Assembly: GCA_902798815.1 (NCBI GenBank)
Contig: CADBYH010000001.1
Span: 69,554-133,553, forward strand
Length of the DNA: 64,000 nt
From: an uncultured Erysipelotrichaceae bacterium
GTDB taxonomy: Bacteria; Bacillota_I; Bacilli_A; RF39; UBA660
Direction: 5' to 3'
This document shows positions 25,651 through 36,950 of the stretch, in pieces. The notes beneath the pieces were generated by a model that was not told the DNA's origin, ran no database searches, and was given only the letters and a program-made list of their open reading frames with translations. The translations under genes were made by a program, and so were the position numbers. How positions within the stretch are numbered: position 1 is the first letter of the stretch; each line of letters starts with the position of its first letter.

Positions 25651-25679
25651 TTGAAAAAAATCGAAAAATATGGTATAAT
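25651..25679 (+). promoter_or_regulatory. extended -10 promoter of riboswitch leader 1
   Basis: TTGAAA - 17 nt (containing TGG) - TATAAT. Confidence 0.55.
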
Positions 25680-25687
25680 ATACATTC

Positions 25688-25799
25688 GTAAGAGGGAGTA
25701 GTTCCATCTAAAGGTGTAGTAACTCAACACTATGATATTTATTATCTGGGTTACTTATAAAGAACAAGACTTTTATAGAAATATAAGAGTCTTTTTTTT
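25688..25799 (+). promoter_or_regulatory. yybP-ykoY (Mn2+)-type riboswitch-like leader with intrinsic terminator, copy 1
   Basis: P1 GTAAGAG (25688-94) abuts GGAGTAG (25695-701). P2 is CATC/GGTG. P3.1 is AGTAACTC/GGGTTACT, with internal loop AACACTAT, and P3.2 is GATA/TATC. CAAGA (25765-69) abuts P1' CTTTTAT. P1' overlaps the 5' arm of the terminator GACTTTTAT/ATAAGAGTC, which is followed by T8. Confidence 0.7.
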
Positions 25800-25828
25800 A
25801 TGACTCTTACAAAAGGGGTGATTTATTT

Positions 25829-26446
25829 ATGCATACAAAAAACTTAAGGAGAGTAGCTGAAGAATTAGAAAAAACACATAAAATAAGAAATCTAAAAATA
25901 TCTAGAGAAATGATAGATTATCATTGTGATAAATGTTGGTATTCCTGGGCAGAAACATCAACAGAAATAGAATTCAATGATAGATTATATAAAATTCTTC
26001 TTAAAATGTTACCAAAAGAAATTAGATTAACATTAAAAAAACTTGATAAAGAAATCTTTAAATTAAGAGTAGAAATTAAAAAATCAACCGGATGGGAATT
26101 ATTTGATAGAACAAGTATGTATCATGGATATAAACCAGAAAGACCATTCTTTAAAGAACCAGAAGTTAAACGTAATGAAAATGGTTTCTACGTAGAAATG
26201 CAAGAATCATATCTTTATCAAGAACATAAAGCAATAGATGAGAGAGCAAAACAGTTCTACGAAGAAAATAAAGAGACATTAAAAAAACTACATGATTTAA
26301 TGTCAACGAAAGAATTAATTTTAAATAAAACTATATCATTAGTTTCAGAAGAAAACAAAGATCTTACTAGAGAGATATTATTATTTCTAGGATATAATCC
26401 TAATGAAGAAAATGAAACAACATATAATAACAGATTTTTTATATAA
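25829..26446 (+). CDS. hypothetical cytosolic protein (paralog A), riboswitch-controlled
   Basis: SD AAAGGGGTGA. 205 aa with no TM segment. Shares ...LLKMLPKEIR...KKSTGW... and a C-terminal ...EILLFLGYNPNEENETTYN with the next gene. Confidence 0.7.
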   Translation: MHTKNLRRVAEELEKTHKIRNLKISREMIDYHCDKCWYSWAETSTEIEFNDRLYKILLKMLPKEIRLTLKKLDKEIFKLRVEIKKSTGWELFDRTSMYHGYKPERPFFKEPEVKRNENGFYVEMQESYLYQEHKAIDERAKQFYEENKETLKKLHDLMSTKELILNKTISLVSEENKDLTREILLFLGYNPNEENETTYNNRFFI

Positions 26447-26481
26447 AGTAGCTAATAGCTTAAAGAAGGGGTGTGATGTAT

Positions 26482-27051
26482 ATGAGTAATTACGAAAAAT
26501 TAGTTATAGAATTATGCAATATTAATAAAAAAGATTTAGCAGAAAGAATAATCAAAGTAGAGGAAAATCATGAATATCAAGAAAAAAGAAGAATAGATTA
26601 TGAATTATATTTATTATTATTAGATCTTGTTCCAGAAAGAATTAAAGATCAAATTGAAACATTAAGATTAGAAATAATTAATATGAAAAAGTCTATTATG
26701 GATCAATCTGGATGGTATGTAGATAACGATATATTTGAATTTAGTAATGGAGTATTCATGCATGACTTTAGTTATGACATGGGATATGATGTTGCTTATA
26801 TTGTTAGAAACAACAAAGAGTATAAGGTATTAGATGATTTCAAAACACCAAGTAGAGAACGTTTAGAAACTGATTTCTTTGAAACATACAAAGAACAATT
26901 AATAGGACTTAATGATATGATATGCTTATATGAATTATTATTAAGAACTTGTTCAAAATCAGTTAAAAACAACAAATCATTAGTAAATGAAATTGTTACT
27001 TACTTGGGATATAATGATTCTAAGAAAAAAAATAAAACCTATAATTATTAA
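26482..27051 (+). CDS. hypothetical cytosolic protein (paralog B)
   Basis: SD GAAGGGG at 26465-71. The ATG at 26482 has better spacing than the track GTG at 26473. Shares LLLDLVPERIK...KKSIMDQSGW...EIVTYLGYNDSKKKNKTYN with the previous gene. Confidence 0.7.
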   Translation: MSNYEKLVIELCNINKKDLAERIIKVEENHEYQEKRRIDYELYLLLLDLVPERIKDQIETLRLEIINMKKSIMDQSGWYVDNDIFEFSNGVFMHDFSYDMGYDVAYIVRNNKEYKVLDDFKTPSRERLETDFFETYKEQLIGLNDMICLYELLLRTCSKSVKNNKSLVNEIVTYLGYNDSKKKNKTYNY

Positions 27052-27056
27052 ATATA

Positions 27057-27085
27057 ATAGCAATGATTTCATTGCTATTTTTTTA
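27057..27085 (+). terminator. intrinsic terminator
   Basis: ATAGCAATGA / TCATTGCTAT hairpin plus T7. Confidence 0.7.
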
Positions 27086-27159
27086 TTAAAAAGAATGTAT
27101 TTTTATAGGAAATATGTTACAATTAAAATGGTATAGTATAGAAAAGGATGGTGATATAA

Positions 27160-28521
27160 ATGATAAATAATATTAATCAAAATATATCAAAACCATCCTT
27201 TTTATATACAGATAAAAATAACTATGAAGAATTTTTAAATGAAGCTAGAAATAACAATACATCTATTATTGGATTTACATCATTGCTACCAGAACCTGAT
27301 CTAGTCCTTCCAGATATTGATAAACCATCATTTAAAGATATTGATAAATTTATAGAATCAATTTCTAATTTAAAATACCAAGAAAAATTCATTCCAATTT
27401 TAACTGGTTTTGAAACAGAATATCATCCAATGAAAGAAGCATATCTTGCAGAAGCAAGAGAAAAAGTTGATTTCTTAATCTTATTTCAAAGACATGTTAA
27501 TAAAGGACTAATAAATACTAATCCAACAAACAATCCAAACTATCCAATTGAATACGCAAATACAGTTATTAAAGCACTTGAAAGTGGCTTGTTTGATATA
27601 GTTAAATTCCCTGATTATTTTACAAAATATGAGAGTACTATAACAGAAGAAAATCAAGAATTATATAAAGAAAATGTAGAAATTGCCAGTCAAGTAATAT
27701 GTGAAAAAGCAAGAGATTTAAATATTCCAATAGAATTAGACTTATCAAATGCAAACACTAGCCAAGTATTTGTAGAAATTGCCAGTGAGATAGATAATCT
27801 ACAAGTACTTATAAATTCATCACATAATGATAATAATCTATATAAATTAATTGAATCAAAAATTGTAAATAAATATTATAGCCCTGTAAGTAATAGACAA
27901 AATAATAAGAAACTTCAAAAACTATGTAGTAAGACATCAAATAATTCATTAACATATGAAACACATATGATTAATCAAATAATGAAAAATGCCTTTAAAA
28001 ACATAAAAGTATGGGACAATCCAGAAAATTTAGAAATAACAATAAGTTATATATTAGATCAAACCTTTAAAAATTGCGTAAAGGATGCAAATGAACAATA
28101 TAACTCAATTATAAATGATCCTGTATTAAAAAAATCTGAAAAACAACAGATTGCTAAAGAAATACTAGAAGTATTAGATAAACAAAAAATAGTTTTAGAA
28201 AACGCTAAAGAATATTTCTCTATAGCAGTTAATCTAGGGTGTAATTCAAAAAAAGAATATTTAAATATAATTACTCAAATTTCTCAATATAATTCAACTA
28301 CATCAGAACTACAAAAGTTAGATATAGAAGAACATCTTAATAGATATGCTGCTTCAAAAGGATTAATAAATATAGATAGACATGTATATACATTACGAAA
28401 AGAAAAAAACTTTTTAACAGAAAACGAAGGCTCAATAAGTATATTTGGAATTGTATTAATTTCAATAATATTATGTATTTTAGTTATTTGTTTAATTGTC
28501 TATAAAGTAATAATAATGTAA
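27160..28521 (+). CDS. degenerate PHP-fold (HisJ-like) protein with C-terminal membrane anchor
   Basis: The layout follows HisJ-type PHP phosphatases (GFETEY for GlEvDY, FQRHV for gSvH, KFPDYF for gHxD, IELDLSN for lElN). However, the N-terminal HxH and most other metal ligands are replaced. C-terminal TM helix IFGIVLISIILCILVICLIVY. Confidence 0.6.
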   Translation: MINNINQNISKPSFLYTDKNNYEEFLNEARNNNTSIIGFTSLLPEPDLVLPDIDKPSFKDIDKFIESISNLKYQEKFIPILTGFETEYHPMKEAYLAEAREKVDFLILFQRHVNKGLINTNPTNNPNYPIEYANTVIKALESGLFDIVKFPDYFTKYESTITEENQELYKENVEIASQVICEKARDLNIPIELDLSNANTSQVFVEIASEIDNLQVLINSSHNDNNLYKLIESKIVNKYYSPVSNRQNNKKLQKLCSKTSNNSLTYETHMINQIMKNAFKNIKVWDNPENLEITISYILDQTFKNCVKDANEQYNSIINDPVLKKSEKQQIAKEILEVLDKQKIVLENAKEYFSIAVNLGCNSKKEYLNIITQISQYNSTTSELQKLDIEEHLNRYAASKGLINIDRHVYTLRKEKNFLTENEGSISIFGIVLISIILCILVICLIVYKVIIM

Positions 28522-28534
28522 GAATGGAGAATAT

Positions 28535-28669
28535 ATGGAAGAAAATAAAGAAAAAACAAATAAAGAAGAATATGAAGTTCTTAAAGAATTAAATCAAAAG
28601 ATTATACTTTTTAAAAAAGATAGTGAGGAAAAAGATAAAAAAGATAATAATCAAACTATAAGGAGGTAA
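28535..28669 (+). CDS. possible 44-aa charged micro-ORF
   Basis: Below the track cut-off. ATG lies 5 nt after GGAG. It fills the gap between two operon genes and its stop is 4 nt before the next ATG. Sequence: MEENKEKTNKEEYEVLKELNQKIILFKKDSEEKDKKDNNQTIRR. Confidence 0.3.
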   Translation: MEENKEKTNKEEYEVLKELNQKIILFKKDSEEKDKKDNNQTIRR

Positions 28670-28673
28670 AAAT

Positions 28674-31600
28674 ATGAATTCATCTGATAATACATTTTTT
28701 ATAAGTAATATAGAAGATATAATGGATAGTTTAGAAGATGTGATTACAGAAATAGATGATCAATATAATGAAGATGCAGGAGAATTATTTGATAATTGTA
28801 ATTTCTCAGAATTAATAAATGTTTTAAACAAATATCGATCAGACTTTGTTACGAATAATCACATATCCGTTGAATCATTAAAAATGACATATGCTATTAT
28901 GAATCCTGAAGATAAAAATAAAGTATATTCAGATGAAGAATATAATAATCTCCTAAAGAAAATCGCTGATGTTCACGGTGATAGATTATATGAAATAATG
29001 GGAGTATCATACTATAGTTTTGATATGAGTAATCTAGATGGTTTATTGAATTATGATGATCCAAAGTATGCTAGTACATATAGAAATGTTCTTGGAAGAA
29101 AATTGATAGAAATACCAATTGATGATTCTATTAATATTTTGAAAAATATTAATAAAAATGCCATTGATCAAGATTTTATTATAAAGTTTATTGAACAAAA
29201 AAATGAATTAAAATTTGGGGATAAATTAATTGCTTTAGCAAGCGTTTTACCAAAAGAAATGTTGGAAGATGGAAAAATAGGTAAAGAAATGATTAAAAAA
29301 ATAGACTCCATTTATTTTGGATCTGAAAAACTACTTGATTATATCCCTGAAACTGCATATGATAGCGAATTAGTTGAAATGATACTTAATAAAACAACAG
29401 ATAATGGTTTTTATGCAATATTTCAGAAAATACCTAAACAACTAAAGACTAGAGAAATATATGAAAGAGTATGTAGTAATAATTCATATTTTATTCATGA
29501 ACTTCCAAAAGAAAGTATTGATCCTAATATATCTGAAGAAGAATATAACCTATGGGTAAATAAACTGATTGTTGATGCTATTAATACAGATCCTGAATCA
29601 TCATATTCATTTTTTAGAGAATTAGATGATTCAAGAAAAACTAAAGAGATATGCACAATGGTTGCTAAAAACTTATCATTTAGTAGTGAATATGAATATG
29701 GTTATTTTCTCGAAAAAGTTCCTAATAATTGTAGAAGTAAAGAATTATATGAAATTATATTAGAAAAAACTACTGAAATAATAAGAAATATTCCGCAAGA
29801 ATCATTTGATCCAAATATCTCACAAGAAGAGTATGATAAATGGTATAAATCTTTAGTAATGAATAGTATCGATAAATCAAATTCTATGATGAATATCAGA
29901 AAACAAATTCCACCATCAAAAATGGATGAAAAGCTTTGGAATAGAATGCTAGATAAATGTATTGAGACTAAGGAAGATAAAAGATGTGCATCACTTGAAT
30001 ATATAGATTATGAAAATCTAACTCCTCAGATGATAGAAAGAGCAATAAATGAAATTGATGAAACACAAATATATTATATTCCGTGTATTGATAGAAAATT
30101 AGATGGATTACCAGAACAAGAAAAAGAAAAATATGCTAGATGGCAATCATCACTATCAGAAGAAGAAAAAAAATCTTACAGAGATTTATACGAAAGACTA
30201 TGGATTGATTTTGTGAATAAAAATTCACCAGCATCATTATATGAAAGAGTTCCACGTGAAGGAATAACTCACAATATGCATATGACATGTATTGATAAAG
30301 ATAACTTTTTAGCAATCAAATGTATGCCATTACCTGAAACAGAACAAGAAAAAGAAGAATATCAAAAATTACTTATATATGCTATAAGTAAAATAGAACC
30401 AATTAATTATAATAAAGAACACTCAGATCTTATAGAAGAAAGAGATATTCTTGAAAATATACCTCAAGAATTAATAAATGAAGATGTTCTAAGAGCAGCA
30501 ATAGAAAAAAGCAGTATATATTTATCATATGCTAATGTTGATTCGGAAAATTTTGAAGAATTATTAAATATCGGATATAAAGGAAAATTAGAATCATTAG
30601 GAAGAGATAAACTAACAAAAGAGGAAATAGAATTAATTCAGAGATTTGCACACAGTAATAGTGATTTATTTAAAACATTGAAATTAGAAATATTAGACCC
30701 AAGAATTGTAAGTACAATTGGAGAAGATAGTTTAGAAATAATTACAAGATATAAAGATGTACAAAATTCAGTATTGAAATTAGCAAATAATGAAGATGCA
30801 CTAGCAACATTTGGCTTTGTTTTAGAAAACTTAAAAGAAGATAGTCAATTCATTGAACCAACAATTGAAAAATTATCTCGATCAATATCATATCAAGGAG
30901 AAACAGGATATGGAAATACAGGTTCACAATTTTTAAAATCTGTAAATAAGAGATTAAAAAGAAAAGATGTCCCTGTTACAGACTACGAAAAAGTAATTAT
31001 ATCTCATTTAGCTTTAAATACAAGAGAAGGTAAAAAAATAAATAATTACGAAGATGTTTTAACATATGTAGATAGAAAAAATAGTGAATTAGAAACTATA
31101 GTTTCCAATCCAAATGCATCATTAATAGATGTAAAAAATGCATATTTAGAAAGAGTCATCGGAATGGATTATGAAACTGCAAAAAATCTTGTTAGTACTT
31201 ATGGTAATGATCCAGAAGAGCTTTTAAGAAAATATGATAATTTAGATCCTAATGCTTATCAAGAACTTGCTGAAAAAGAAGCACTTGAAATCATTATAAA
31301 ATTAAAATCTATAATAGAAACAAATGATATTAATGCTTTAAGAAGTGAATTTCAAAAATATGTTAGTGAAGAAAAAAGAGAAGATTCATACAAAAGATAT
31401 AAAACAGCTCCAAAAATCGATTCTACATTAAGAAGAGCTTATGGAAGAGATATTACAGAATCATTATCAAAAACAGAAGGCCAGTTAGAAGAAAAAGAAC
31501 TTGAATCAGGTGAAAAATATTATGTAAGACGTGTCTCAGGTGATTTTAATAGAATGGTAAGTTTATTAGGAGCTTACAGAAAATCAGGTGCTACAGAAGG

Positions 31601-32567
31601 AGACATGTATGACAGATGGAATACCAGTGAAATGTCAGGTAATCATGCTTTATGTTACAGTTTAATTAATCAATCAAATCCTGGAACAGCTATGATTGAT
31701 GGTAAAAAAGGTGTAATTATATCTGTAAATGGTTTCAGCCCTGAAGCAGTATCTGCTGCGGCACCTTACGATTTATGCTCAGATAATAGATTTAATACGG
31801 TTCATACCTGGAGAGACCAAAGGTTTTTTAGTGCCAGAAATATGCCTAATCAAACAAGAGGAATGTATTCTGAATATGATATAGAAATTAAAGATGTAAA
31901 CGCTCCTAAAGGTACTTATAGAAAGATACAACCAGCATCAATTATCTGTTTTGAAGAAATTGATGAGGATAGTATAAATGCATCAATTGAATTATCAAAG
32001 AAATTAGTATATCCAGTGCCAATAGAATTAATTGATAGAAGAGAACTTGCAAGAAATGAAATGATCCAAATACTTGCTGCATACAATGAATTTAAAAAAG
32101 GTGATAATTTAGATCCAGCATTACTTGAACAAATTATCACAAGATTTAATAATGTCAGAAATGCCCATAGATATTCAAATTTATCTGACGAATTATTAGG
32201 TGAAAAAGAAGAAGAAAATAAACAAGCACCATTTAATAAAGAACATTTAAATCAAATAATCAAAGAATGTCTTAAAGTAATAGAGCAAAAGATAAAATCC
32301 GGAAAAGTAGAAGAAGGACTTCAAGTTTTAGAACAATTAAAAACTATAATTGCAAAAGAAAGAGAAAAAGCATACCTTATGCCAACTATGCACGATAAAC
32401 AAAGATGGACATCGATTGATATGGAAATTGATTATGCAATAGACTCTATGATAAGAACATACTCGCAACCAGTAATAACAGAGCAAAAGGAATCTCAATC
32501 GATTGATGTAGTAAGAAATTTACAAGGTCAAAGTCTTAACTCAGTCGTATATGATATTAGTTATTAA
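28674..32567 (+). CDS. giant cytosolic repeat protein (DUF4116-like helical repeats + unassigned C-terminal globular domain)
   Basis: Strong SD AAGGAGG. 1297 aa with no signal peptide or TM. Repeats include LPKESIDPNISEEEYNLWVNKLIVDAI / IPQESFDPNISQEEYDKWYKSLVMNSI and ...IPKQLKTREIYERV... / ...VPNNCRSKELYEII.... The C-terminal ~300 aa are non-repetitive. Confidence 0.8.
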   Translation: MNSSDNTFFISNIEDIMDSLEDVITEIDDQYNEDAGELFDNCNFSELINVLNKYRSDFVTNNHISVESLKMTYAIMNPEDKNKVYSDEEYNNLLKKIADVHGDRLYEIMGVSYYSFDMSNLDGLLNYDDPKYASTYRNVLGRKLIEIPIDDSINILKNINKNAIDQDFIIKFIEQKNELKFGDKLIALASVLPKEMLEDGKIGKEMIKKIDSIYFGSEKLLDYIPETAYDSELVEMILNKTTDNGFYAIFQKIPKQLKTREIYERVCSNNSYFIHELPKESIDPNISEEEYNLWVNKLIVDAINTDPESSYSFFRELDDSRKTKEICTMVAKNLSFSSEYEYGYFLEKVPNNCRSKELYEIILEKTTEIIRNIPQESFDPNISQEEYDKWYKSLVMNSIDKSNSMMNIRKQIPPSKMDEKLWNRMLDKCIETKEDKRCASLEYIDYENLTPQMIERAINEIDETQIYYIPCIDRKLDGLPEQEKEKYARWQSSLSEEEKKSYRDLYERLWIDFVNKNSPASLYERVPREGITHNMHMTCIDKDNFLAIKCMPLPETEQEKEEYQKLLIYAISKIEPINYNKEHSDLIEERDILENIPQELINEDVLRAAIEKSSIYLSYANVDSENFEELLNIGYKGKLESLGRDKLTKEEIELIQRFAHSNSDLFKTLKLEILDPRIVSTIGEDSLEIITRYKDVQNSVLKLANNEDALATFGFVLENLKEDSQFIEPTIEKLSRSISYQGETGYGNTGSQFLKSVNKRLKRKDVPVTDYEKVIISHLALNTREGKKINNYEDVLTYVDRKNSELETIVSNPNASLIDVKNAYLERVIGMDYETAKNLVSTYGNDPEELLRKYDNLDPNAYQELAEKEALEIIIKLKSIIETNDINALRSEFQKYVSEEKREDSYKRYKTAPKIDSTLRRAYGRDITESLSKTEGQLEEKELESGEKYYVRRVSGDFNRMVSLLGAYRKSGATEGDMYDRWNTSEMSGNHALCYSLINQSNPGTAMIDGKKGVIISVNGFSPEAVSAAAPYDLCSDNRFNTVHTWRDQRFFSARNMPNQTRGMYSEYDIEIKDVNAPKGTYRKIQPASIICFEEIDEDSINASIELSKKLVYPVPIELIDRRELARNEMIQILAAYNEFKKGDNLDPALLEQIITRFNNVRNAHRYSNLSDELLGEKEEENKQAPFNKEHLNQIIKECLKVIEQKIKSGKVEEGLQVLEQLKTIIAKEREKAYLMPTMHDKQRWTSIDMEIDYAIDSMIRTYSQPVITEQKESQSIDVVRNLQGQSLNSVVYDISY

Positions 32568-32630
32568 GAATCACAAGTAATTCCAAAACAACTATCACCT
32601 GATGAGATTTTAGAAATTAGTGATTTATCA

Positions 32631-33617
32631 ATGGTAGAATCAGAAATAAGAGAAGTTCATGATGCAGGATTTTATCAAAATAAAACAGCATATGGAGAAG
32701 AACATATCGCAAGAGTAATATTATATAGTTCTAATATTGCTAAAATGGAAGGACTAGATGAAAGAACTCAACAATTACTAACAGAAGCAGCTAAATACTC
32801 ATCATGTGGTAGACAAACTGATTCAGTAGAAAGACATGAAAAATACAGTTCAACCTTGGCAGCCAAACAACTAAAAGAAAAATACTCAGATGGCGATATA
32901 AGACTAATCCAAGCAGCGATAGAACTACAAAATATTGGAATGTCAATGGGAAGACAAGAAGATAAAGATAGAATAATATCTGAAATATGTACAAAATATC
33001 AAATTCCTGAAAATCAAAGAGATACAGTTCTAAAAATGTCTAATTGTTTAAATGATGCAATAGAATTAGATAGATTAAGATTTGTAGATAAGGCGCAGGC
33101 AAATAAAGAAGAGAAATTTTCTTTATTCAGATTACAAACAGATTCATCAAAAAAGTTGATTCAAAGTAGTTGTTACATTCAAGAACAATTAGCAGAACAA
33201 GAACTTGAAGAAAGAAAAAATCAAGCAAACATTACTTATGATTCATCAACTAAAAGAGATATTATGGATAAATTTTTTACTGAAAAAATTATGGGAATGC
33301 CACATCGTACTCAAGAAGAAAGAATTACAGAATCTCCATTAGTTAGACTTGAGTATTTTAAAACTAAATACCCAGAACTAGTAGATGTTGAGACAAATTC
33401 TATACCGGTAAAACAAGAAACTTCGTCTAAAGAAAAAGAAATATCAGAAAAACAAGAAAAAAGAAGGCAACAATATGAACAAAGAAAAAAACAGTTAGGT
33501 TTGAATGATGAACCTGTTATAGCGCTTGATACACTATTTCATGAACAAGAAATCTTAGAGCAGCTTGGAATTACAGAAGAAATGATAGAAGAAGCATCTA
33601 TTGGATATAGAAGATAG
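32631..33617 (+). CDS. degenerate HD-domain-like protein, in frame with the upstream giant ORF
   Basis: EEHIARVILYSSNIAKMEGLDERTQQLLTEAAKYSSCGRQ follows the HD-domain pattern H...(gld)...LHDIGR, but with HD replaced by SS. No SD precedes the ATG. It is in the same reading frame as 28674..32567, separated only by the TAA at 32565-32567. Confidence 0.6.
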   Translation: MVESEIREVHDAGFYQNKTAYGEEHIARVILYSSNIAKMEGLDERTQQLLTEAAKYSSCGRQTDSVERHEKYSSTLAAKQLKEKYSDGDIRLIQAAIELQNIGMSMGRQEDKDRIISEICTKYQIPENQRDTVLKMSNCLNDAIELDRLRFVDKAQANKEEKFSLFRLQTDSSKKLIQSSCYIQEQLAEQELEERKNQANITYDSSTKRDIMDKFFTEKIMGMPHRTQEERITESPLVRLEYFKTKYPELVDVETNSIPVKQETSSKEKEISEKQEKRRQQYEQRKKQLGLNDEPVIALDTLFHEQEILEQLGITEEMIEEASIGYRR

Positions 33618-33626
33618 GAGGTAATT

Positions 33627-35159
33627 ATGGATAATACGACAAACGACAAAAAAGAAGAAATATCTCAAAGTCAGAATAATACAATAAAAGAAGAATTAAA
33701 AGAACCAGAAGAAAAAGTTATAGAAGTAGGTTCGAAAATAAAAGATGGACAGTATAAATGTCCAAATTGTGGGTCAAGTCAAATTGAACCAAATCCCAAA
33801 ACAGGTAAATTAAAATGTGCTTATTGTGCCTGTGAATTTGATGGAAAAAATATAGAAAATACAGTTGCAGATTTAACTAAATTAAAAGGTCGTGTCAGAG
33901 GAAGTGGAACATCAAATATTAAAGCAGATGCCAATGATGTTGTAACATTAAAATGTGGAGGTTGTGGTGCTGAAGTAGTAATTGATACCGCAAATGCTCC
34001 TCACGCAAGATGTCACTGGTGCAGAAGTATTCTTTCCATAAATTCTCAAATAGAAAATGGTGCTATTCCAGATGTAATTCTGCCTTTTAAAGAAAAAAAA
34101 GAAGAAGCTAGAGAAAAAATAAATGATTTTGTAAAAAAAAGAACATTCTTTGCTAATCCTAGATTTAAAAAAGAATTTACAACAGAAAATATAATGGGAG
34201 TATATTTTCCTTATTTACTTGTAGATGCAAATTGTCATGCTAATTTTAAAGGACAAGGAGAACATAAAACAAGAGAATATCGAGTTCCTGCTGGAGATGA
34301 TGATTGGGTTACTGTTTATGATGCTGATTTATATAACGTTGAAAGAGAATATGATATGGTTGTAAAAGGATTGTCCATAGAATCTAATTCAACTAGATTA
34401 GATAAAACATCTAATAGTCAAACAAATAATATTATTAATAGTATAATGCCTTTTGATACAGAAAACTGTATTCAATATCAATCTAACTATCTTGTAGGAT
34501 ATACCTCTGAAAGACGTGATGTAAATATAGACGATATTGAACCACAAGTTGCTAAACAACTAAAAGATATTGCAAGATTTTCATCTAAAAAAGAAACAGA
34601 ATTGTTTTATGATCGCGGTATAAGATGGGACTATCAAGATTTAAAAATAATAGGTACACAATGGTTAGCAGCATACTTACCAGTATGGTTATATAGTTAT
34701 CAAGAAGTAAAAGGAAATAAAAAAGTACTTCATTACGTTGCCGTAAATGCAAGAACTGGTGAAACTATGGGAAGTGTTCCAATTAATAAACCATTACTAT
34801 TTGGAATATCTGCCATAATAGAATTTTTCTGTACTATTTTAGCATTCATCTTGTTCTTTGTAACATCAACTGGTAGTGATGATGATGATAGTGTAGGTTT
34901 CTTCTTATTATTACTAGGAGGATTTATTTTCTATGGAGTAATGTATTTAAGATATCGTAATAGTGATGCAAGACATGCCTATGAAGATGAAACAGAAAAA
35001 GAAATTTATAATATAAAAAGAAAAGATGAATTTGTTAAAAAAGAAAAAGAATTGCGTAATAGTCAAATAAAAGGGATTAATGATACCGTAATCGAAGGAG
35101 ATGTAATTGATTCAACATCAAAATTAGGAAATATAATTAAGAAAAACATAAACAAATAA
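33627..35159 (+). CDS. double zinc-ribbon protein with C-terminal transmembrane hairpin
   Basis: SD TAGGAGG. Zinc-ribbon cysteine pairs CPNCGS...CAYCAC and CGGCGA...CHWCRS. Two C-terminal TM helices (LLFGISAIIEFFCTILAFILFFV and FFLLLLGGFIFYGVMYL). Confidence 0.7.
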   Translation: MDNTTNDKKEEISQSQNNTIKEELKEPEEKVIEVGSKIKDGQYKCPNCGSSQIEPNPKTGKLKCAYCACEFDGKNIENTVADLTKLKGRVRGSGTSNIKADANDVVTLKCGGCGAEVVIDTANAPHARCHWCRSILSINSQIENGAIPDVILPFKEKKEEAREKINDFVKKRTFFANPRFKKEFTTENIMGVYFPYLLVDANCHANFKGQGEHKTREYRVPAGDDDWVTVYDADLYNVEREYDMVVKGLSIESNSTRLDKTSNSQTNNIINSIMPFDTENCIQYQSNYLVGYTSERRDVNIDDIEPQVAKQLKDIARFSSKKETELFYDRGIRWDYQDLKIIGTQWLAAYLPVWLYSYQEVKGNKKVLHYVAVNARTGETMGSVPINKPLLFGISAIIEFFCTILAFILFFVTSTGSDDDDSVGFFLLLLGGFIFYGVMYLRYRNSDARHAYEDETEKEIYNIKRKDEFVKKEKELRNSQIKGINDTVIEGDVIDSTSKLGNIIKKNINK

Positions 35160-35180
35160 GTATAACTTATTTGTTTTTTT
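35151..35180 (+). terminator. intrinsic terminator ending the 27160-35159 operon
   Basis: AACAAATAAG / CTTATTTGTT hairpin plus a T-run. Confidence 0.7.
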
Positions 35181-35320
35181 ATTTGATGATTATCAAAAAA
35201 ACATACTTATATATGGTATATTATCAAATAAAGTGTTAAATAAGTGTAAAGTAAAGTGACTAACCAATTGAAAAACAAACGAATAAAGTGTATAATATGT
35301 CATTGATTAAGGGGGATATT

Positions 35321-36385
35321 ATGAAAATAAAAGAAAATAGCGCAGTGAAAAAAATAATAAAAATGCCAGTAGGTTATACTATACTAACTATCTCTGATAA
35401 TTATGATCTAAAAAGAATTGCTATAAAGGGAAGTATATCAAAAGGCAGAAGATACATATACATGTATGACAAAGATACTGATTTAGTTAATAGTATTGAT
35501 GCAGAAGTAAAAATATCAAATGAAAATGGATTAAAAATTGTTGCCTATGGTGATTATATAATTCATGATGCAGAATATGTACTATTAGATTGTAAAAAGA
35601 AAATTCTTAATGATAATAGAATGTTCAAATCAATTGAAGATAGAGTAAAAGTAGACGAACAATCAAAAAGCAATTTAGAAATAGAAAGAATTACAAAACA
35701 AAAAGACAAAGAAATTGCTGATCTACAGCAAAAATTAAAAGAAAGAGAAAATTACTACACAGTTGATAGATTAACTAGACTTAGTGATATTAAGAAAGAT
35801 TTAGTATTAGGAGAAGTAACTTGCTATTCATATAGTTCTGGTATGAGAGACAGGGGAAGATATTTTGGTGGATATCAAATGACATCAACATCTAATGTAA
35901 CTAAAAAAGTAAAAAATAATGGAATAAAATTTGTAATTGAAAAATTAGAAATTATTTCTGAATTATATAACTCTGATGCATTTTCTAATAATAGATTACA
36001 TACTTTATTAGAAAAAATAGAATCTTTAGAAACAAAAGCAAGAACAAAATATGATGAAGAGACTTTAAACAGTATTCAATCTATATATGGTTTAATAGCA
36101 GAAGAGTTAACAATAAGATTGATTAATTTGTGTAATCATATAAGAAATAATAATATTAAAACTGATGAATTAACTTATGAAGAAACAATATATAGATATG
36201 GAACAAAGTTCTATGATGATGAAAGTGAATATGAAGAAATAGAAAAAATAGATAATTATTTTGATAGCATCATAGAAGGAGCATGTACATTTATAGAAAG
36301 AATTACAAATCAAAACATAAAAGATGAATTACATTCAAGATTACATCAAGAAATAGAAAAACCAAAAGAAAAAAGAATTGGATAA
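35321..36385 (+). CDS. hypothetical coiled-coil protein
   Basis: ATG at 35321 follows SD AAGGGGGAT, so the track GTG at 35288 is likely too early. The central region is heptad-rich. No motif recognised. Confidence 0.65.
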   Translation: MKIKENSAVKKIIKMPVGYTILTISDNYDLKRIAIKGSISKGRRYIYMYDKDTDLVNSIDAEVKISNENGLKIVAYGDYIIHDAEYVLLDCKKKILNDNRMFKSIEDRVKVDEQSKSNLEIERITKQKDKEIADLQQKLKERENYYTVDRLTRLSDIKKDLVLGEVTCYSYSSGMRDRGRYFGGYQMTSTSNVTKKVKNNGIKFVIEKLEIISELYNSDAFSNNRLHTLLEKIESLETKARTKYDEETLNSIQSIYGLIAEELTIRLINLCNHIRNNNIKTDELTYEETIYRYGTKFYDDESEYEEIEKIDNYFDSIIEGACTFIERITNQNIKDELHSRLHQEIEKPKEKRIG

Positions 36386-36422
36386 TTTATGAACAAAAAC
36401 GTATATATATGTTATTAACATA

Positions 36423-36451
36423 TTAACAAAAACAGCATAATATGGTATAAT
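36423..36451 (+). promoter_or_regulatory. extended -10 promoter of riboswitch leader 2
   Basis: TTAACA - 17 nt (containing TGG) - TATAAT. The spacing from -10 to GGAGTAG is the same 16 nt as in copy 1. Confidence 0.55.
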
Positions 36452-36459
36452 TATATACG

Positions 36460-36579
36460 TTGAAATGGAGTAGTTCTCATTTATAAAATGATTTTTAATT
36501 CGTCAACACAAGAATCTTATTCTTCGGATTAAAAATAAATAACAAGACTTTCACATTAAATAATGTGGGAGTCTTTTTT
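36460..36579 (+). promoter_or_regulatory. yybP-ykoY (Mn2+)-type riboswitch-like leader with intrinsic terminator, copy 2
   Basis: P1 TTGAAAT abuts GGAGTAG (36467-73). P2 is CATT/AATG. P3.1 is ATTTTTAATTC/GGATTAAAAAT (11 bp), L3 is GTCAACAC opposite C, and P3.2 is AAGAAT/ATTCTT. CAAGA (36543-47) abuts P1' CTTTCA. The terminator GACTTTCACATT/AATGTGGGAGTC plus T6 overlaps P1'. Confidence 0.7.
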
Positions 36580-36610
36580 GTATACCACAAAAAAAGGGGG
36601 AATATATTTT

Positions 36611-36901
36611 ATGATAAGAGAAATTTGTACAATTGATTTTATTAAAGGAGTTAGATTTATATCTGCTATAGAGAATGGAACAATAAAATTATTTTCATTA
36701 GATGAAGGAATTTCACTTTATATTGAAGCTGATGAAAATACAAGAAACATTAAAAGTATAAGAATTAATGGAAAATACTTTGATGTGACTATGAAAAATA
36801 TTAATGCTTTAAATAATTTTTATAGTAAAAATGGATTAGGTACAGATATAACAATAACAGAACCTACAAATACATATATTGATAAACCATCAATTAAATA
36901 A
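36611..36901 (+). CDS. hypothetical small protein (96 aa), riboswitch-controlled
   Basis: ATG at 36611 follows SD AAGGGGGAA. The track start at 36563 lies inside the terminator hairpin and is rejected. Confidence 0.65.
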   Translation: MIREICTIDFIKGVRFISAIENGTIKLFSLDEGISLYIEADENTRNIKSIRINGKYFDVTMKNINALNNFYSKNGLGTDITITEPTNTYIDKPSIK

Positions 36902-36924: not shown

Positions 36925-36950
36925 GAATAATCAATTGATTATTCTTTTTT
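36925..36950 (+). terminator. intrinsic terminator
   Basis: Palindrome GAATAATCAA/TTGATTATTC followed by T6. Confidence 0.6.

Follow-up and report, generated by a model that had tools for sequence, protein, structure and literature searches.

Three-way-junction yybP-ykoY leaders upstream of soluble orphan genes in an uncultured Erysipelotrichaceae bacterium

Introduction

In a 64,000-nucleotide stretch of DNA from an uncultured, low-GC Erysipelotrichaceae bacterium of the gut (the window), two similar leaders resembling the yybP-ykoY riboswitch lie on either side of roughly 11 kb of uncharacterised genes. An earlier note, made from the letters alone, had described both as lacking the P4 hairpin and had offered two explanations: a Mn2+-responsive regulon of uncharacterised role or a structural variant with a changed ligand. 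The locus thus raises the questions of which riboswitch class the leaders belong to, which genes they control and which metal they would sense. All coordinates below are window positions, and all features lie on the + strand.

Results

Anatomy of the two leaders

The two leaders are homologous, each consisting of a promoter, a P4-less yybP-ykoY-type aptamer and a terminator overlapping P1.1. Leader 1 (25689-25799) is preceded by a promoter at 25651-25679 (TTGAAA, 17 nt, TG-extended TATAAT; 11/12 match), which is also conserved in copy 2 and from which transcription is predicted to start a few bases 5' of P1.1. Its aptamer (25689-25775), a three-way junction of yybP-ykoY type, comprises P1.1 (25689-25694 with 25770-25775), the L1 5' strand GGAGUA (25695-25700; as DNA, GGAGTAG at 25695-25701), P1.2 (pairs G25701-C25765 and U25702-A25764), a P2 hairpin (25705-25716), P3.1 (25718-25723 with 25750-25755), L3 with the sequence UCAACAC (DNA TCAACAC, 25724-25730), P3.2 (25734-25746) and, with L3, a 3' UGG bulge (25747-25749), so that P3.1, L3 and P3.2 span 25718-25755. 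In place of P4, the linker TTATAAAGAA (also given as UAUAAAGA) leads to CAAGA (25765-25769; CAAGAC, 25765-25770), of which AAGA (25766-25769) is the L1 3' strand. The intrinsic terminator of this leader (25766-25799) has a 12-bp stem (25766-25777 with 25782-25793) and a U-run, and its 5' arm includes the L1-3' and P1.1-3' strands. The two folds exclude each other: the minimum free energy (MFE) structure is the terminator state at -29.1 kcal/mol, against -17.0 kcal/mol with P1.1 enforced. Copy 1 carries the type B signature (GUAG-U...A-CRAGAC, UCAACAC and 3' CUGG) and is assigned to subtype B.

Leader 2 (36461-36579) repeats this layout. Its promoter (36423-36451; TTAACA, 17 nt, TG-extended TATAAT) precedes a second three-way-junction aptamer of yybP-ykoY type (36461-36553), with P1.1 at 36461-36465 and 36549-36553, the L1 5' strand at 36467-36472 (GGAGTAG, 36467-36473), P2 at 36477-36491, P3.1 at 36493-36502 and 36525-36534, L3 UCAACAC at 36503-36509 (DNA TCAACAC) and P3.2 at 36510-36524. 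The linker replacing P4 is AAATAAATAA (AUAAAUA), followed by CAAGA (36543-36547; CAAGAC, 36543-36548) with the L1 3' AAGA at 36544-36547. The terminator (36544-36579) has a 14-bp stem and a U-run, again overlaps the L1-3' and P1.1-3' strands and again forms the MFE state (-28.9 versus -12.7 kcal/mol for the P1.1 state). The subtype signature of this copy is mixed. Position 36466 is U, not the family-invariant G, which is present in 104/104 external leaders and in the sister strains; the resulting U-C mismatch at the closing pair weakens P1.1 of copy 2.

Both leaders belong to the P4-less yybP-ykoY family

An anchored pattern matched the window twice, compared with 0.00 matches expected in shuffles. 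We then scored both copies with a covariance model, R1, built solely from 104 external leaders. Copy 1 reached 51.8 bits (E 1.7e-11) and copy 2 reached 62.7 bits (E 1.8e-14), both aligned over the full model length and within the family range of 42-88 bits, and the search returned no other match in the window. Taken together, the pattern counts and the E-values of this independent model exclude chance for both leaders. The same model gave the Escherichia coli mntP leader 12.7 bits only.

Covariation was evaluated in an alignment of 103 sequences, with slid alignments and 500 shuffles as controls. Paired cells amounted to 86.3%, compared with 31-45% in the slid controls, and compensatory changes occurred at 22 of 25 pairs. 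The covariation score of 0.561 compares with 0.04-0.14 in controls and was reached by none of the 500 shuffles. Support extends over P1.1, P1.2, P2, P3.1 and P3.2 (copy 2 lacks the closing G-C pair of P1.1), with P1.2 alternating between C-G (70) and U-A (27).

The distance from L3 to CRAGAC is 33-34 nt in the window copies (family range 27-43 nt) and 47 nt in the four-way-junction mntP leader of E. coli, leaving no room for a P4 hairpin. The earlier description of the leaders as P4-less three-way junctions is upheld. Their shared AUAAA linker is a minority form that only 4 of 104 family members carry, whereas 89 of 104 have U[U/G]AAA.

Rfam RF00080 (gathering threshold 45 bits) matched neither copy even at E<=10 with inputs of 141-151 nt, whereas the E. 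coli mntP control scored 44.9 bits under the same settings. It also misses the experimentally validated streptococcal type (L007), so that the missing matches reflect a four-way-junction bias of the model. The best Rfam match of both copies was SSRC10 (RF02617), at 31.9 and 34.4 bits and thus below its gathering score of 56; this model is Streptococcus-specific, begins within P2 and describes a terminated transcript 5' of a Streptococcus pyogenes 'calcium transporter' gene. Neither the window nor any of 18 representative loci contained a match to the Rfam models Na+-I (DUF1646) or nhaA-I.

From the observed anatomy, family membership, covariation and mutually exclusive folds, together with the recurring gene association described below, we conclude that each leader is probably an independent, transcription-terminating ON riboswitch of the three-way-junction (mgtA-type) subclass of yybP-ykoY Mn2+ riboswitches.

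The three-way-junction form is published and widespread

The P4-less structure itself is not new, and Rfam already lists it in part, under SSRC10. In Streptococcus pneumoniae, the yybP-ykoY riboswitch of mgtA is a three-way junction in which a UNAAA-type linker replaces P4 and a terminator follows; it acts as a Mn2+-specific ON switch in vivo, and mutation of L1 GG or L3 CA abolishes its function (Martin et al. 2019, PMC6649816). A strict pattern for the P4-less form matched in at least 120 species-representative genomes. Most of these external loci lie 5' of P-type ATPases, MntP, Na/Ca exchangers or stand-alone OAD-beta proteins, and at least 101 of 120 precede membrane transporters or transporter-like membrane proteins, 98 of them from these four main classes and three of them singletons. 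The type B signature precedes MntP in 20 of 24 MntP loci, while type A relatives precede Ca-type P-ATPases, Na/Ca exchangers, stand-alone OAD-beta proteins and one Na/Pi cotransporter. The earlier note had treated the P4-less form as a variant and had named its common occurrence 5' of ordinary Mn2+ exporters as the outcome that would speak against its reading; the form is published for mgtA, is common and regulates ordinary Mn2+/Ca2+ exporters, and so it is no novel variant.

Each leader controls only its own short unit

Leader 1 is followed by a gene for a 205-aa soluble protein (25829-26446), preceded by a strong RBS, AAGGGGTG, and by a gene for a 192-aa paralog (26473-27051; 24-28% identity, depending on the alignment). 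A terminator at 27056-27084, with a 10-bp stem (27056-27079) and a T-run, closes this operon. Leader 2 precedes a single gene, coding for a 96-aa soluble orphan protein (36611-36901; RBS GGGGG). Between this gene and the following parE/gyrB-like gene lies a terminator-like hairpin (36925-36950; GAATAATC AATT GATTATTC and a T-run), which was read from the sequence and falls below the G-C criterion of the terminator scanner. Control by leader 1 is hence confined to the 205/192-aa paralogs, and that by leader 2 to the 96-aa gene.

The intervening ORFs (27160-36385; 453, 1297, 328, 510 and 365 aa) lie outside both riboswitch units as context. Among them, the 453-aa protein has a C-terminal transmembrane segment and a sub-threshold PHP/histidinol-phosphatase-like match, and the 510-aa protein has a Zn-ribbon and two transmembrane segments. 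Searches of the eight ORFs against Pfam, NCBIfam, PADLOC and PHROGs returned nothing significant, in line with the earlier description of these genes as unassigned. Its description of the block between the leaders had to be corrected to four large ORFs (453, 1297, 328 and 510 aa) and the 365-aa ORF. The controlled 205-, 192- and 96-aa proteins have no transmembrane segment and no family assignment, and the Mn2+/Ca2+ exporter that is typical, though not strictly defining, as the downstream gene was not found in the window, consistent with the earlier observation that no recognisable metal transporter follows the leaders.

A single Mn-responsive island, in which both leaders together would enclose and control all 11 kb of the block, as the earlier notion of a bracketed unit would have it, appears highly improbable. 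All ORFs are co-oriented and unassigned, and the arrangement is repeated in another assembly of this organism. The canonical terminator 3' of the 192-aa gene, however, splits the block from the leader 1 operon, no leader was found by the R1 scan of the window 5' of any of the 453-aa to 365-aa genes, and the 205-family gene occurs with its leader but without the block in other organisms. As leader 2 lies downstream of the block and has its own promoter, it cannot regulate the block, and the bracketing is a positional coincidence.

The gene association recurs in other lineages

The 205-aa family comprises 81 clusters at 50% identity, is soluble and has no Pfam family and no PDB or viral fold match; conserved residues of the 205/192-aa family are His155, Glu162, Glu104, Arg115 and Trp89. 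Several 205-family genes adjoin polysaccharide or PHP-phosphoesterase genes. In three other lineages, homologs with 52%, 42% and 28% identity stand behind such leaders (P0002, 45.9 bits; P0036, 53 bits; P0038, 24.9 bits, a P2-less/P4-containing form), and more distant members had no leader in five lineages. Homologs with protein identity as low as 42%, and seven other metagenomic loci, keep the order of promoter, leader, terminator, RBS and ORF. The unusual pairing of leader and gene is thus real and reproducible, contrary to the possibility, raised beforehand, that homologs are never riboswitch-associated elsewhere.

In low-GC Bacilli, SPFH (SPFH/Band_7), TelA-like and lipoprotein genes stand behind seven more leaders of the same subtype. 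Because this subtype also controls these genes in the lineage, the regulon appears to serve a response to Mn excess or envelope stress, and not efflux alone; we infer this physiological role for controlled proteins none of which has a known metal link. Of the two explanations offered at the outset, a Mn2+-responsive regulon of uncharacterised role is the best reading. More tentatively, and with considerable doubt, the 205/192-aa family could be a new cytosolic player in the handling of Mn, acting as Mn2+ buffer, as chaperone or as effector of Mn stress. Uncultured low-GC gut Bacilli would induce it through Mn2+ riboswitches of two or more architectures (P4-less and P2-less), within a lineage-specific regulon that the 96-aa orphan shares with SPFH, TelA-like and lipoprotein genes.

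Conserved contact nucleotides point to Mn2+

The L1 GGA, L3 CA and L1-3' AGA nucleotides mutated by Martin et al. (PMC6649816) are kept in both copies. Each has L1 5' GGAGUAG, which holds the G-G-A for metal binding and the A-minor contact (PMC6649816); L3 UCAAYAC (here UCAACAC) with the invariant C-A, the A N7 of which is a Mn2+ ligand in the family; and, as CAAGAC, the invariant AGA of the L1 3' strand (CRAGAC). On the basis of these contact nucleotides and of the subtype, the ligand of the window leaders is predicted to be Mn2+.

Metal specificity may vary across the three-way-junction subclass, because the S. pneumoniae relative had a higher affinity for Ca2+ than for Mn2+ in vitro (PMC6649816) and because of the gene contexts of type A relatives. 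Both observations, along with the mixed signature of copy 2 and the lack of a Mn exporter among the downstream genes, would fit leaders that have shifted to Ca2+, Na+ or another divalent cation and whose downstream genes serve that ion. We consider such a shift unlikely, as all nucleotides implicated in coordinating the metal are retained, including the L3 adenosine whose N7 confers Mn2+ selectivity; copy 1 and the leaders of 205-family homologs are of the MntP-linked subtype B; the streptococcal three-way junction is Mn2+-specific in vivo; and the Na+-I (DUF1646) and nhaA-I families gave no match. The changed ligand suggested earlier is therefore unsupported.

Proposed switching mechanism

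Transcription would begin a few bases 5' of P1.1. With no ligand present, the L1-3' and P1.1-3' strands would be taken up into the 5' arm of the terminator, the more stable fold, and a transcript of ~110 nt would be released. Once cytoplasmic Mn2+ rises, the metal would be bound between loops L1 (GGA...AGA) and L3 (UCAA), the P1/P2 leg would dock with the P3 leg and P1.1 would be held closed, so that the terminator could not nucleate and RNA polymerase would enter the ORFs, switching on the 205-aa/192-aa operon behind leader 1 and the 96-aa gene behind leader 2.

The strong thermodynamic preference for the terminator, the loss of the invariant G-C closing pair of P1.1 in copy 2 and the first description of SSRC10 as a small RNA on Northern blots could alternatively indicate decaying or repurposed leaders, that is, constitutive attenuators or SSRC10-like trans-acting small RNAs exerting no metal-dependent control of the ORFs. 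This is very unlikely: both aptamers keep the conserved core nucleotides and all helices and score like bona fide members, the layout from promoter to ORF is conserved across the homologs and metagenomic loci, and sister strains have G at 36466.

Discussion

Structurally, the leader RNA adds nothing new; the modest new lead is the controlled genes. As the Rfam Mn2+ model misses a widespread three-way-junction class, its members are either left without annotation or given the name of a streptococcal small RNA. A riboswitch with a known ligand offers a functional handle on protein families that carry no other annotation, and it predicts induction by excess Mn2+ for the 205-aa family, the 96-aa orphan and the SPFH, TelA-like and lipoprotein targets of related contigs. 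Bacillus subtilis YybP, a small non-transporter protein and non-exporter target of a Mn2+ riboswitch, has recently been tied to exopolysaccharide production and metalation (PMC13598126). Given this link and the neighbours of 205-family genes, the orphans may reasonably be considered as possible new participants in Mn2+ stress or in envelope metalation among gut Bacilli that have received little study. YybP itself is a membrane-anchored lipoprotein (DUF6376), whereas the window proteins are cytosolic, without a Pfam family and unrelated in sequence.

Among known systems, the S. pneumoniae mgtA riboswitch (PMC6649816), also listed as SN44 and, in S. pyogenes, as SSRC10 (RF02617), shares with the window leaders the order P1.1-L1-P1.2, P2 hairpin and P3.1-L3-P3.2, the absence of P4 with a short xNAAA linker running straight into the L1 3' strand, the intrinsic terminator over P1.1, the ON logic and the retained L1 GGA, L3 CA and L1-3' AGA. 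The window leaders differ from this type in their linker (AUAAA, not U[U/G]AAA), P1.2 (U-A, not C-G), L3 (UCAACAC, not UCAAUAC) and shorter P2, in the 3' UGG bulge of copy 1 (subtype B), and in the soluble orphan genes downstream in place of a P-type ATPase. With the canonical four-way-junction riboswitches (Lactococcus lactis yoaB, E. coli mntP; RF00080) they share the L1/L3 metal-binding cores, the P1.1 switch helix and two-leg docking, but lack P4. The E. coli alx riboswitch (PMC12153347), a three-way junction that lacks P2, not P4, and exerts translational, pH-coupled control, shows that one peripheral helix can be lost within the family; the leader of the 28%-identity 205-family homolog (L135) resembles this P2-less/P4-containing layout. 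Finally, Na+-I (DUF1646) and Li+/Na+-II (nhaA-I) are cation-sensing leaders, some of which, like type A three-way-junction leaders, lie 5' of OAD-beta genes.

Two homologous leaders without space for P4

The forward strand of the window carries two homologous leaders, copy 1 at 25689-25799, preceding the genes of the paralogous 205-aa and 192-aa proteins, and copy 2 at 36461-36579, preceding the gene of a 96-aa protein. Both contain the same elements in the same order: a promoter with a TG-extended -10 element, a short 5' strand leading into GGAGTAG, the small P2 hairpin, a second and longer hairpin (P3.1/L3/P3.2) broken by TCAACAC, an A-rich linker (UUAUAAAGAA in copy 1, AAAUAAAUAA in copy 2) running straight into CAAGAC and, finally, a strong hairpin with a U-run. 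Compensatory changes in the stems distinguish the copies, and the loop motifs are identical. An anchored leader pattern matched the window at exactly these two leaders, compared to 0.00 matches expected from shuffled sequences. The spacing between L3 and CRAGAC is 33-34 nt in the window leaders versus 47 nt in the four-way-junction leader of Escherichia coli mntP, leaving no space for a P4 hairpin. Element order and spacing thus bear out the earlier note's description of both leaders as P4-less.

Membership in a published three-way-junction subclass

The P4-less form itself is already known. SSRC10 was described as a terminated transcript upstream of a 'putative calcium transporter' gene of Streptococcus pyogenes (PMC3675131), and the orthologous mgtA leader of S. 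pneumoniae forms a three-way-junction yybP-ykoY riboswitch, in which an invariant UNAAA takes the place of P4 and is followed by a terminator (Martin et al. 2019, PMC6649816). In vivo, this leader is an ON switch specific for Mn2+; it also binds Ca2+ and depends on functional nucleotides in L1 (G16/G17/A18), L3 (C49/A50) and L1-3' (AGA) (PMC6649816). Every nucleotide found necessary in that study is retained in both window copies.

We built a covariance model, R1, from 104 unique external leaders of this subclass. As RNAalifold recovered P1.1 alone from a MAFFT alignment, the three-way-junction structure was supplied by hand and the sequences were realigned with Infernal. In the resulting alignment of 103 sequences, 86.3% of paired cells were compatible with pairing, compared to 31-45% when partners were slid, and 22 of 25 pairs showed changes on both sides. 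The covariation score of 0.561 (0.04-0.14 when slid) was reached by none of 500 shuffles; P1.2, which comprises two pairs, covaries (C-G in 70 sequences, U-A in 27). Scanning the window with R1 returned exactly two matches, copy 2 with 62.7 bits (E 1.8e-14) and copy 1 with 51.8 bits (E 1.7e-11), both inside the family range of 42-88 bits. The linker pentamer AUAAA, present in both copies, is a minority form (4/104 leaders); U[U/G]AAA occurs in 89/104.

In Rfam, SSRC10 (RF02617) was the best match of both copies, with 31.9 and 34.4 bits, under its gathering score. This sub-threshold match aside, neither gathering nor permissive thresholds yielded a match in the window to RF00080 (the Mn2+ family), DUF1646 or nhaA-I, and RF00080 reported nothing for either copy (inputs of about 150 nt) even at E<=10. 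This negative is meaningful, since the permissive run with the same settings scored the E. coli mntP leader at 44.9 bits (E 2e-11). The same control leader (E. coli K-12, L139 2468-2558), an archetypal Mn2+ riboswitch, is missed by this Rfam copy when the gathering threshold is applied, because it falls just under the 45-bit cut-off; under R1, it scores only 12.7 bits. None of 18 representative three-way-junction loci, MntP-upstream and streptococcal types included, reached the RF00080 gathering score. The window negative therefore reflects the bias of RF00080 towards four-way junctions and is not a sign that the window RNAs are something else.

Distribution, subtypes and ligand

Scanned across GTDB with one genome for each species, the pattern GGAGTAG-N(18-48)-TCAAYAC-N(18-40)-AAANARCRAGAC matched at least 120 loci in Streptococcus, Lactococcus, many Clostridia families and uncultured Bacilli. 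Among the matches listed, the first downstream gene encoded a P-type cation ATPase at 36 loci, an OAD_beta protein (PF03977) at 27, MntP at 24 and a Na/Ca exchanger at 11, with CitMHS, DedA/VTT, Na/Pi cotransporter and AdoMet_dc-like genes as singletons. P4-less forms are therefore common and precede ordinary exporter genes, and the suggestion that the window holds a new structural variant is refuted, as the subclass is both published (PMC6649816) and widespread. In some genomes, two such leaders lie within about 1.2 kb and, as in the window, each of the adjacent genes has a riboswitch of its own (L088 4174-4276 and 5429-5529; L109 264-368 and 1466-1569; L105 58-175 and 1239-1339).

Among the matches listed (L001-L120), the external leaders split into two signatures that follow the downstream gene class. 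Type A (GUAG-C...G-CRAGAC, CG-UCAAUAC) precedes 32 of 36 ATPase, all 27 OAD_beta and 8 of 11 Na/Ca exchanger genes; type B (GUAG-U...A-CRAGAC, UCAACAC and a 3' CUGG bulge) precedes 20 of 24 MntP genes. Copy 1 is of type B, and copy 2 has a mixed signature, combining the U...A pair with CG-UCAACAC and lacking CUGG. The N7 of the L3 adenosine is the ligand that confers Mn2+ selectivity (PMC11672702). Judging from subtype and the conserved L3 adenosine, Mn2+ is most likely the ligand of the window leaders. The other possibility raised in the earlier note, a structural variant with a changed ligand, finds no positive evidence, the L3 adenosine being conserved and copy 1 being of type B. Mn2+ need not be the ligand throughout the subclass, given that Ca2+ is bound in vitro and Ca- or Na-related genes lie behind type A leaders; the link between subtype and gene class could stem from a tuning of metal specificity or affinity among three-way-junction leaders.

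At six OAD_beta loci checked (L003, L010, L014, L054, L064, L079), the gene apparently stands alone, without genes for alpha or gamma decarboxylase subunits downstream. This arrangement points to a role of the OAD-beta-like protein in cation transport that has gone unrecognised. A literature search for OAD-beta or unusual gene associations of yybP-ykoY found nothing relevant.

Predicted switching

In both leaders, the L1-3' and P1.1-3' strands are contained in the 5' arm of the terminator, and enforcing P1.1 during folding gave a clean three-way junction. On the forward strand, the terminator 5' arm of copy 1 spans 25766-25777 and the P1.1 3' strand 25770-25775, with a minimum free energy of -29.1 kcal/mol for the full leader (terminator state) and -17.0 kcal/mol with P1.1 enforced. 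The corresponding positions in copy 2 are 36544-36557 and 36549-36553, and the energies -28.9 and -12.7 kcal/mol. The leaders would hence follow the standard design, being OFF unless ligand-stabilised docking holds P1.1, a design demonstrated experimentally in the streptococcal relative. Position 36466 of copy 2 is a U; all 104 external leaders have a G here, in the G-C pair closing P1.1. The site is polymorphic, with U in two assemblies (L122, L123; 62.7 bits) and G in two sister contigs (L124, L125; 72-73 bits), and the U should weaken the antiterminated state of leader 2.

Predicted regulated units and their proteins

The two leaders had been seen as bracketing an 11-kb block of uncharacterised genes, but the unit boundaries do not support functional bracketing. 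Leader 1 is followed, after 30 nt and a strong ribosome binding site, by the 205-aa ORF, its 192-aa paralog (24-28% identity) and a terminator at 27056-27079. Leader 2 forms a separate forward-strand unit with its own promoter, the 96-aa ORF and a terminator-like hairpin, and the five intervening ORFs (27160-36385) showed no leader under R1 and no family assignment. One of them (28674-32567) encodes an acidic 1297-aa protein (233 D+E) without a TM segment, which matched nothing in Pfam, NCBIfam, PADLOC or PHROGs; the ORFs of 328, 510 (Zn-ribbon, 2 TM) and 365 aa that flank it are likewise unassigned.

The 205-, 192- and 96-aa proteins contain no TM-like segment and had no match in the same four databases. 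In a profile search, the 205/192-aa family comprised 81 clusters (50% identity), almost all with proteins of about 200 aa that matched over their full length; none of 46 members matched a Pfam family. The AlphaFold model of the 205-aa protein (pLDDT 78, pTM 0.77) consists of helices and a small beta-meander, and Foldseek found no match to it in the PDB or BFVD. Among the conserved positions are W89, R115, G119, F143, H155 (83%), E162 (76%) and E104 (74%), a hint, at most, of a putative polar or metal site. PHP-domain phosphoesterase genes lie near 205-family genes at three loci (window 27160-28521; L126 354-1136; L134 2682-3560), at the latter two accompanied by sugar-nucleotide or glycosyltransferase genes; this proximity may indicate a link to cell-surface polysaccharide loci or plain synteny.

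The 96-aa protein is an orphan, for which only near-identical copies were found, and its AlphaFold model (pLDDT 44) is unusable. An Asp23 annotation reached through its one apparent relative (P0004) was rejected. P0004 comes from a 660-nt contig with 1.2x coverage (L128) that is about 97% identical to window positions 36582-36727, as far as codon 39; beyond this point, the sequence changes abruptly to unrelated DNA, richer in GC, which encodes an Asp23-type C-terminal half. The contig probably represents a chimera of the assembly, and the annotation to which it gave rise is false.

A recurrent non-exporter association

The atypical gene association noted earlier stands and is reproducible, as the leader recurs with closer relatives of the 205-aa protein. 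It lies upstream of a Band_7 and homolog operon for P0002 (52% identity, L126/L127; 45.9 bits), immediately upstream of P0036 (42%, L129; 53 bits) and before P0038 (28%, L135; 24.9 bits, E 4e-5). Homologs of the 205-aa protein are thus riboswitch-associated elsewhere. No leader was found upstream of P0099, P0078, P0037, P0039 or P0043 (21-28% identity), and two further loci were uninformative. The L135 leader (1146-1265) combines both cores (L1 and L3) with a terminator, lacks P2 and contains a short P4 (AAUAC-UAAAAA-GUAUU). Its layout resembles that of E. coli alx, which is P2-less and P4-containing, but its contig is of low-GC, Gram-positive type; at E<=1, RF00080 gave no match to this leader.

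A metagenome scan for the copy-1 subtype added seven promoter-leader-terminator units on contigs of 23-29% G+C (L144-L150); the source MAG has about 24%. Behind these leaders lie genes for Band_7/SPFH proteins (L145, L148), a TelA-family protein (L150) and lipoprotein-like proteins without a Pfam family (L144 and, ahead of a DUF805 gene, L147). Together with L126, these units suggest a regulon of non-exporter genes particular to this lineage. A further non-transporter association occurs in another MAG of uncultured Bacilli (24% G+C), where a three-way-junction leader precedes the gene of a soluble protein of 242 aa, which has an S-adenosylmethionine decarboxylase-like domain (PF02675; L042 4424-5261).

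Overall, novelty is limited to the gene association, namely new uncharacterised protein families in what is predicted to be a Mn2+ regulon of uncultured low-GC Bacilli; the genes that the riboswitch evidently controls in this lineage are varied and for the most part do not encode exporters. Half of the yybP-ykoY family name comes from YybP, which offers a precedent for such a target. In Bacillus subtilis, YybP is a 148-aa lipoprotein of unknown function rather than a transporter, and both exopolysaccharide production and metalation of the matrix require it (PMC13598126).
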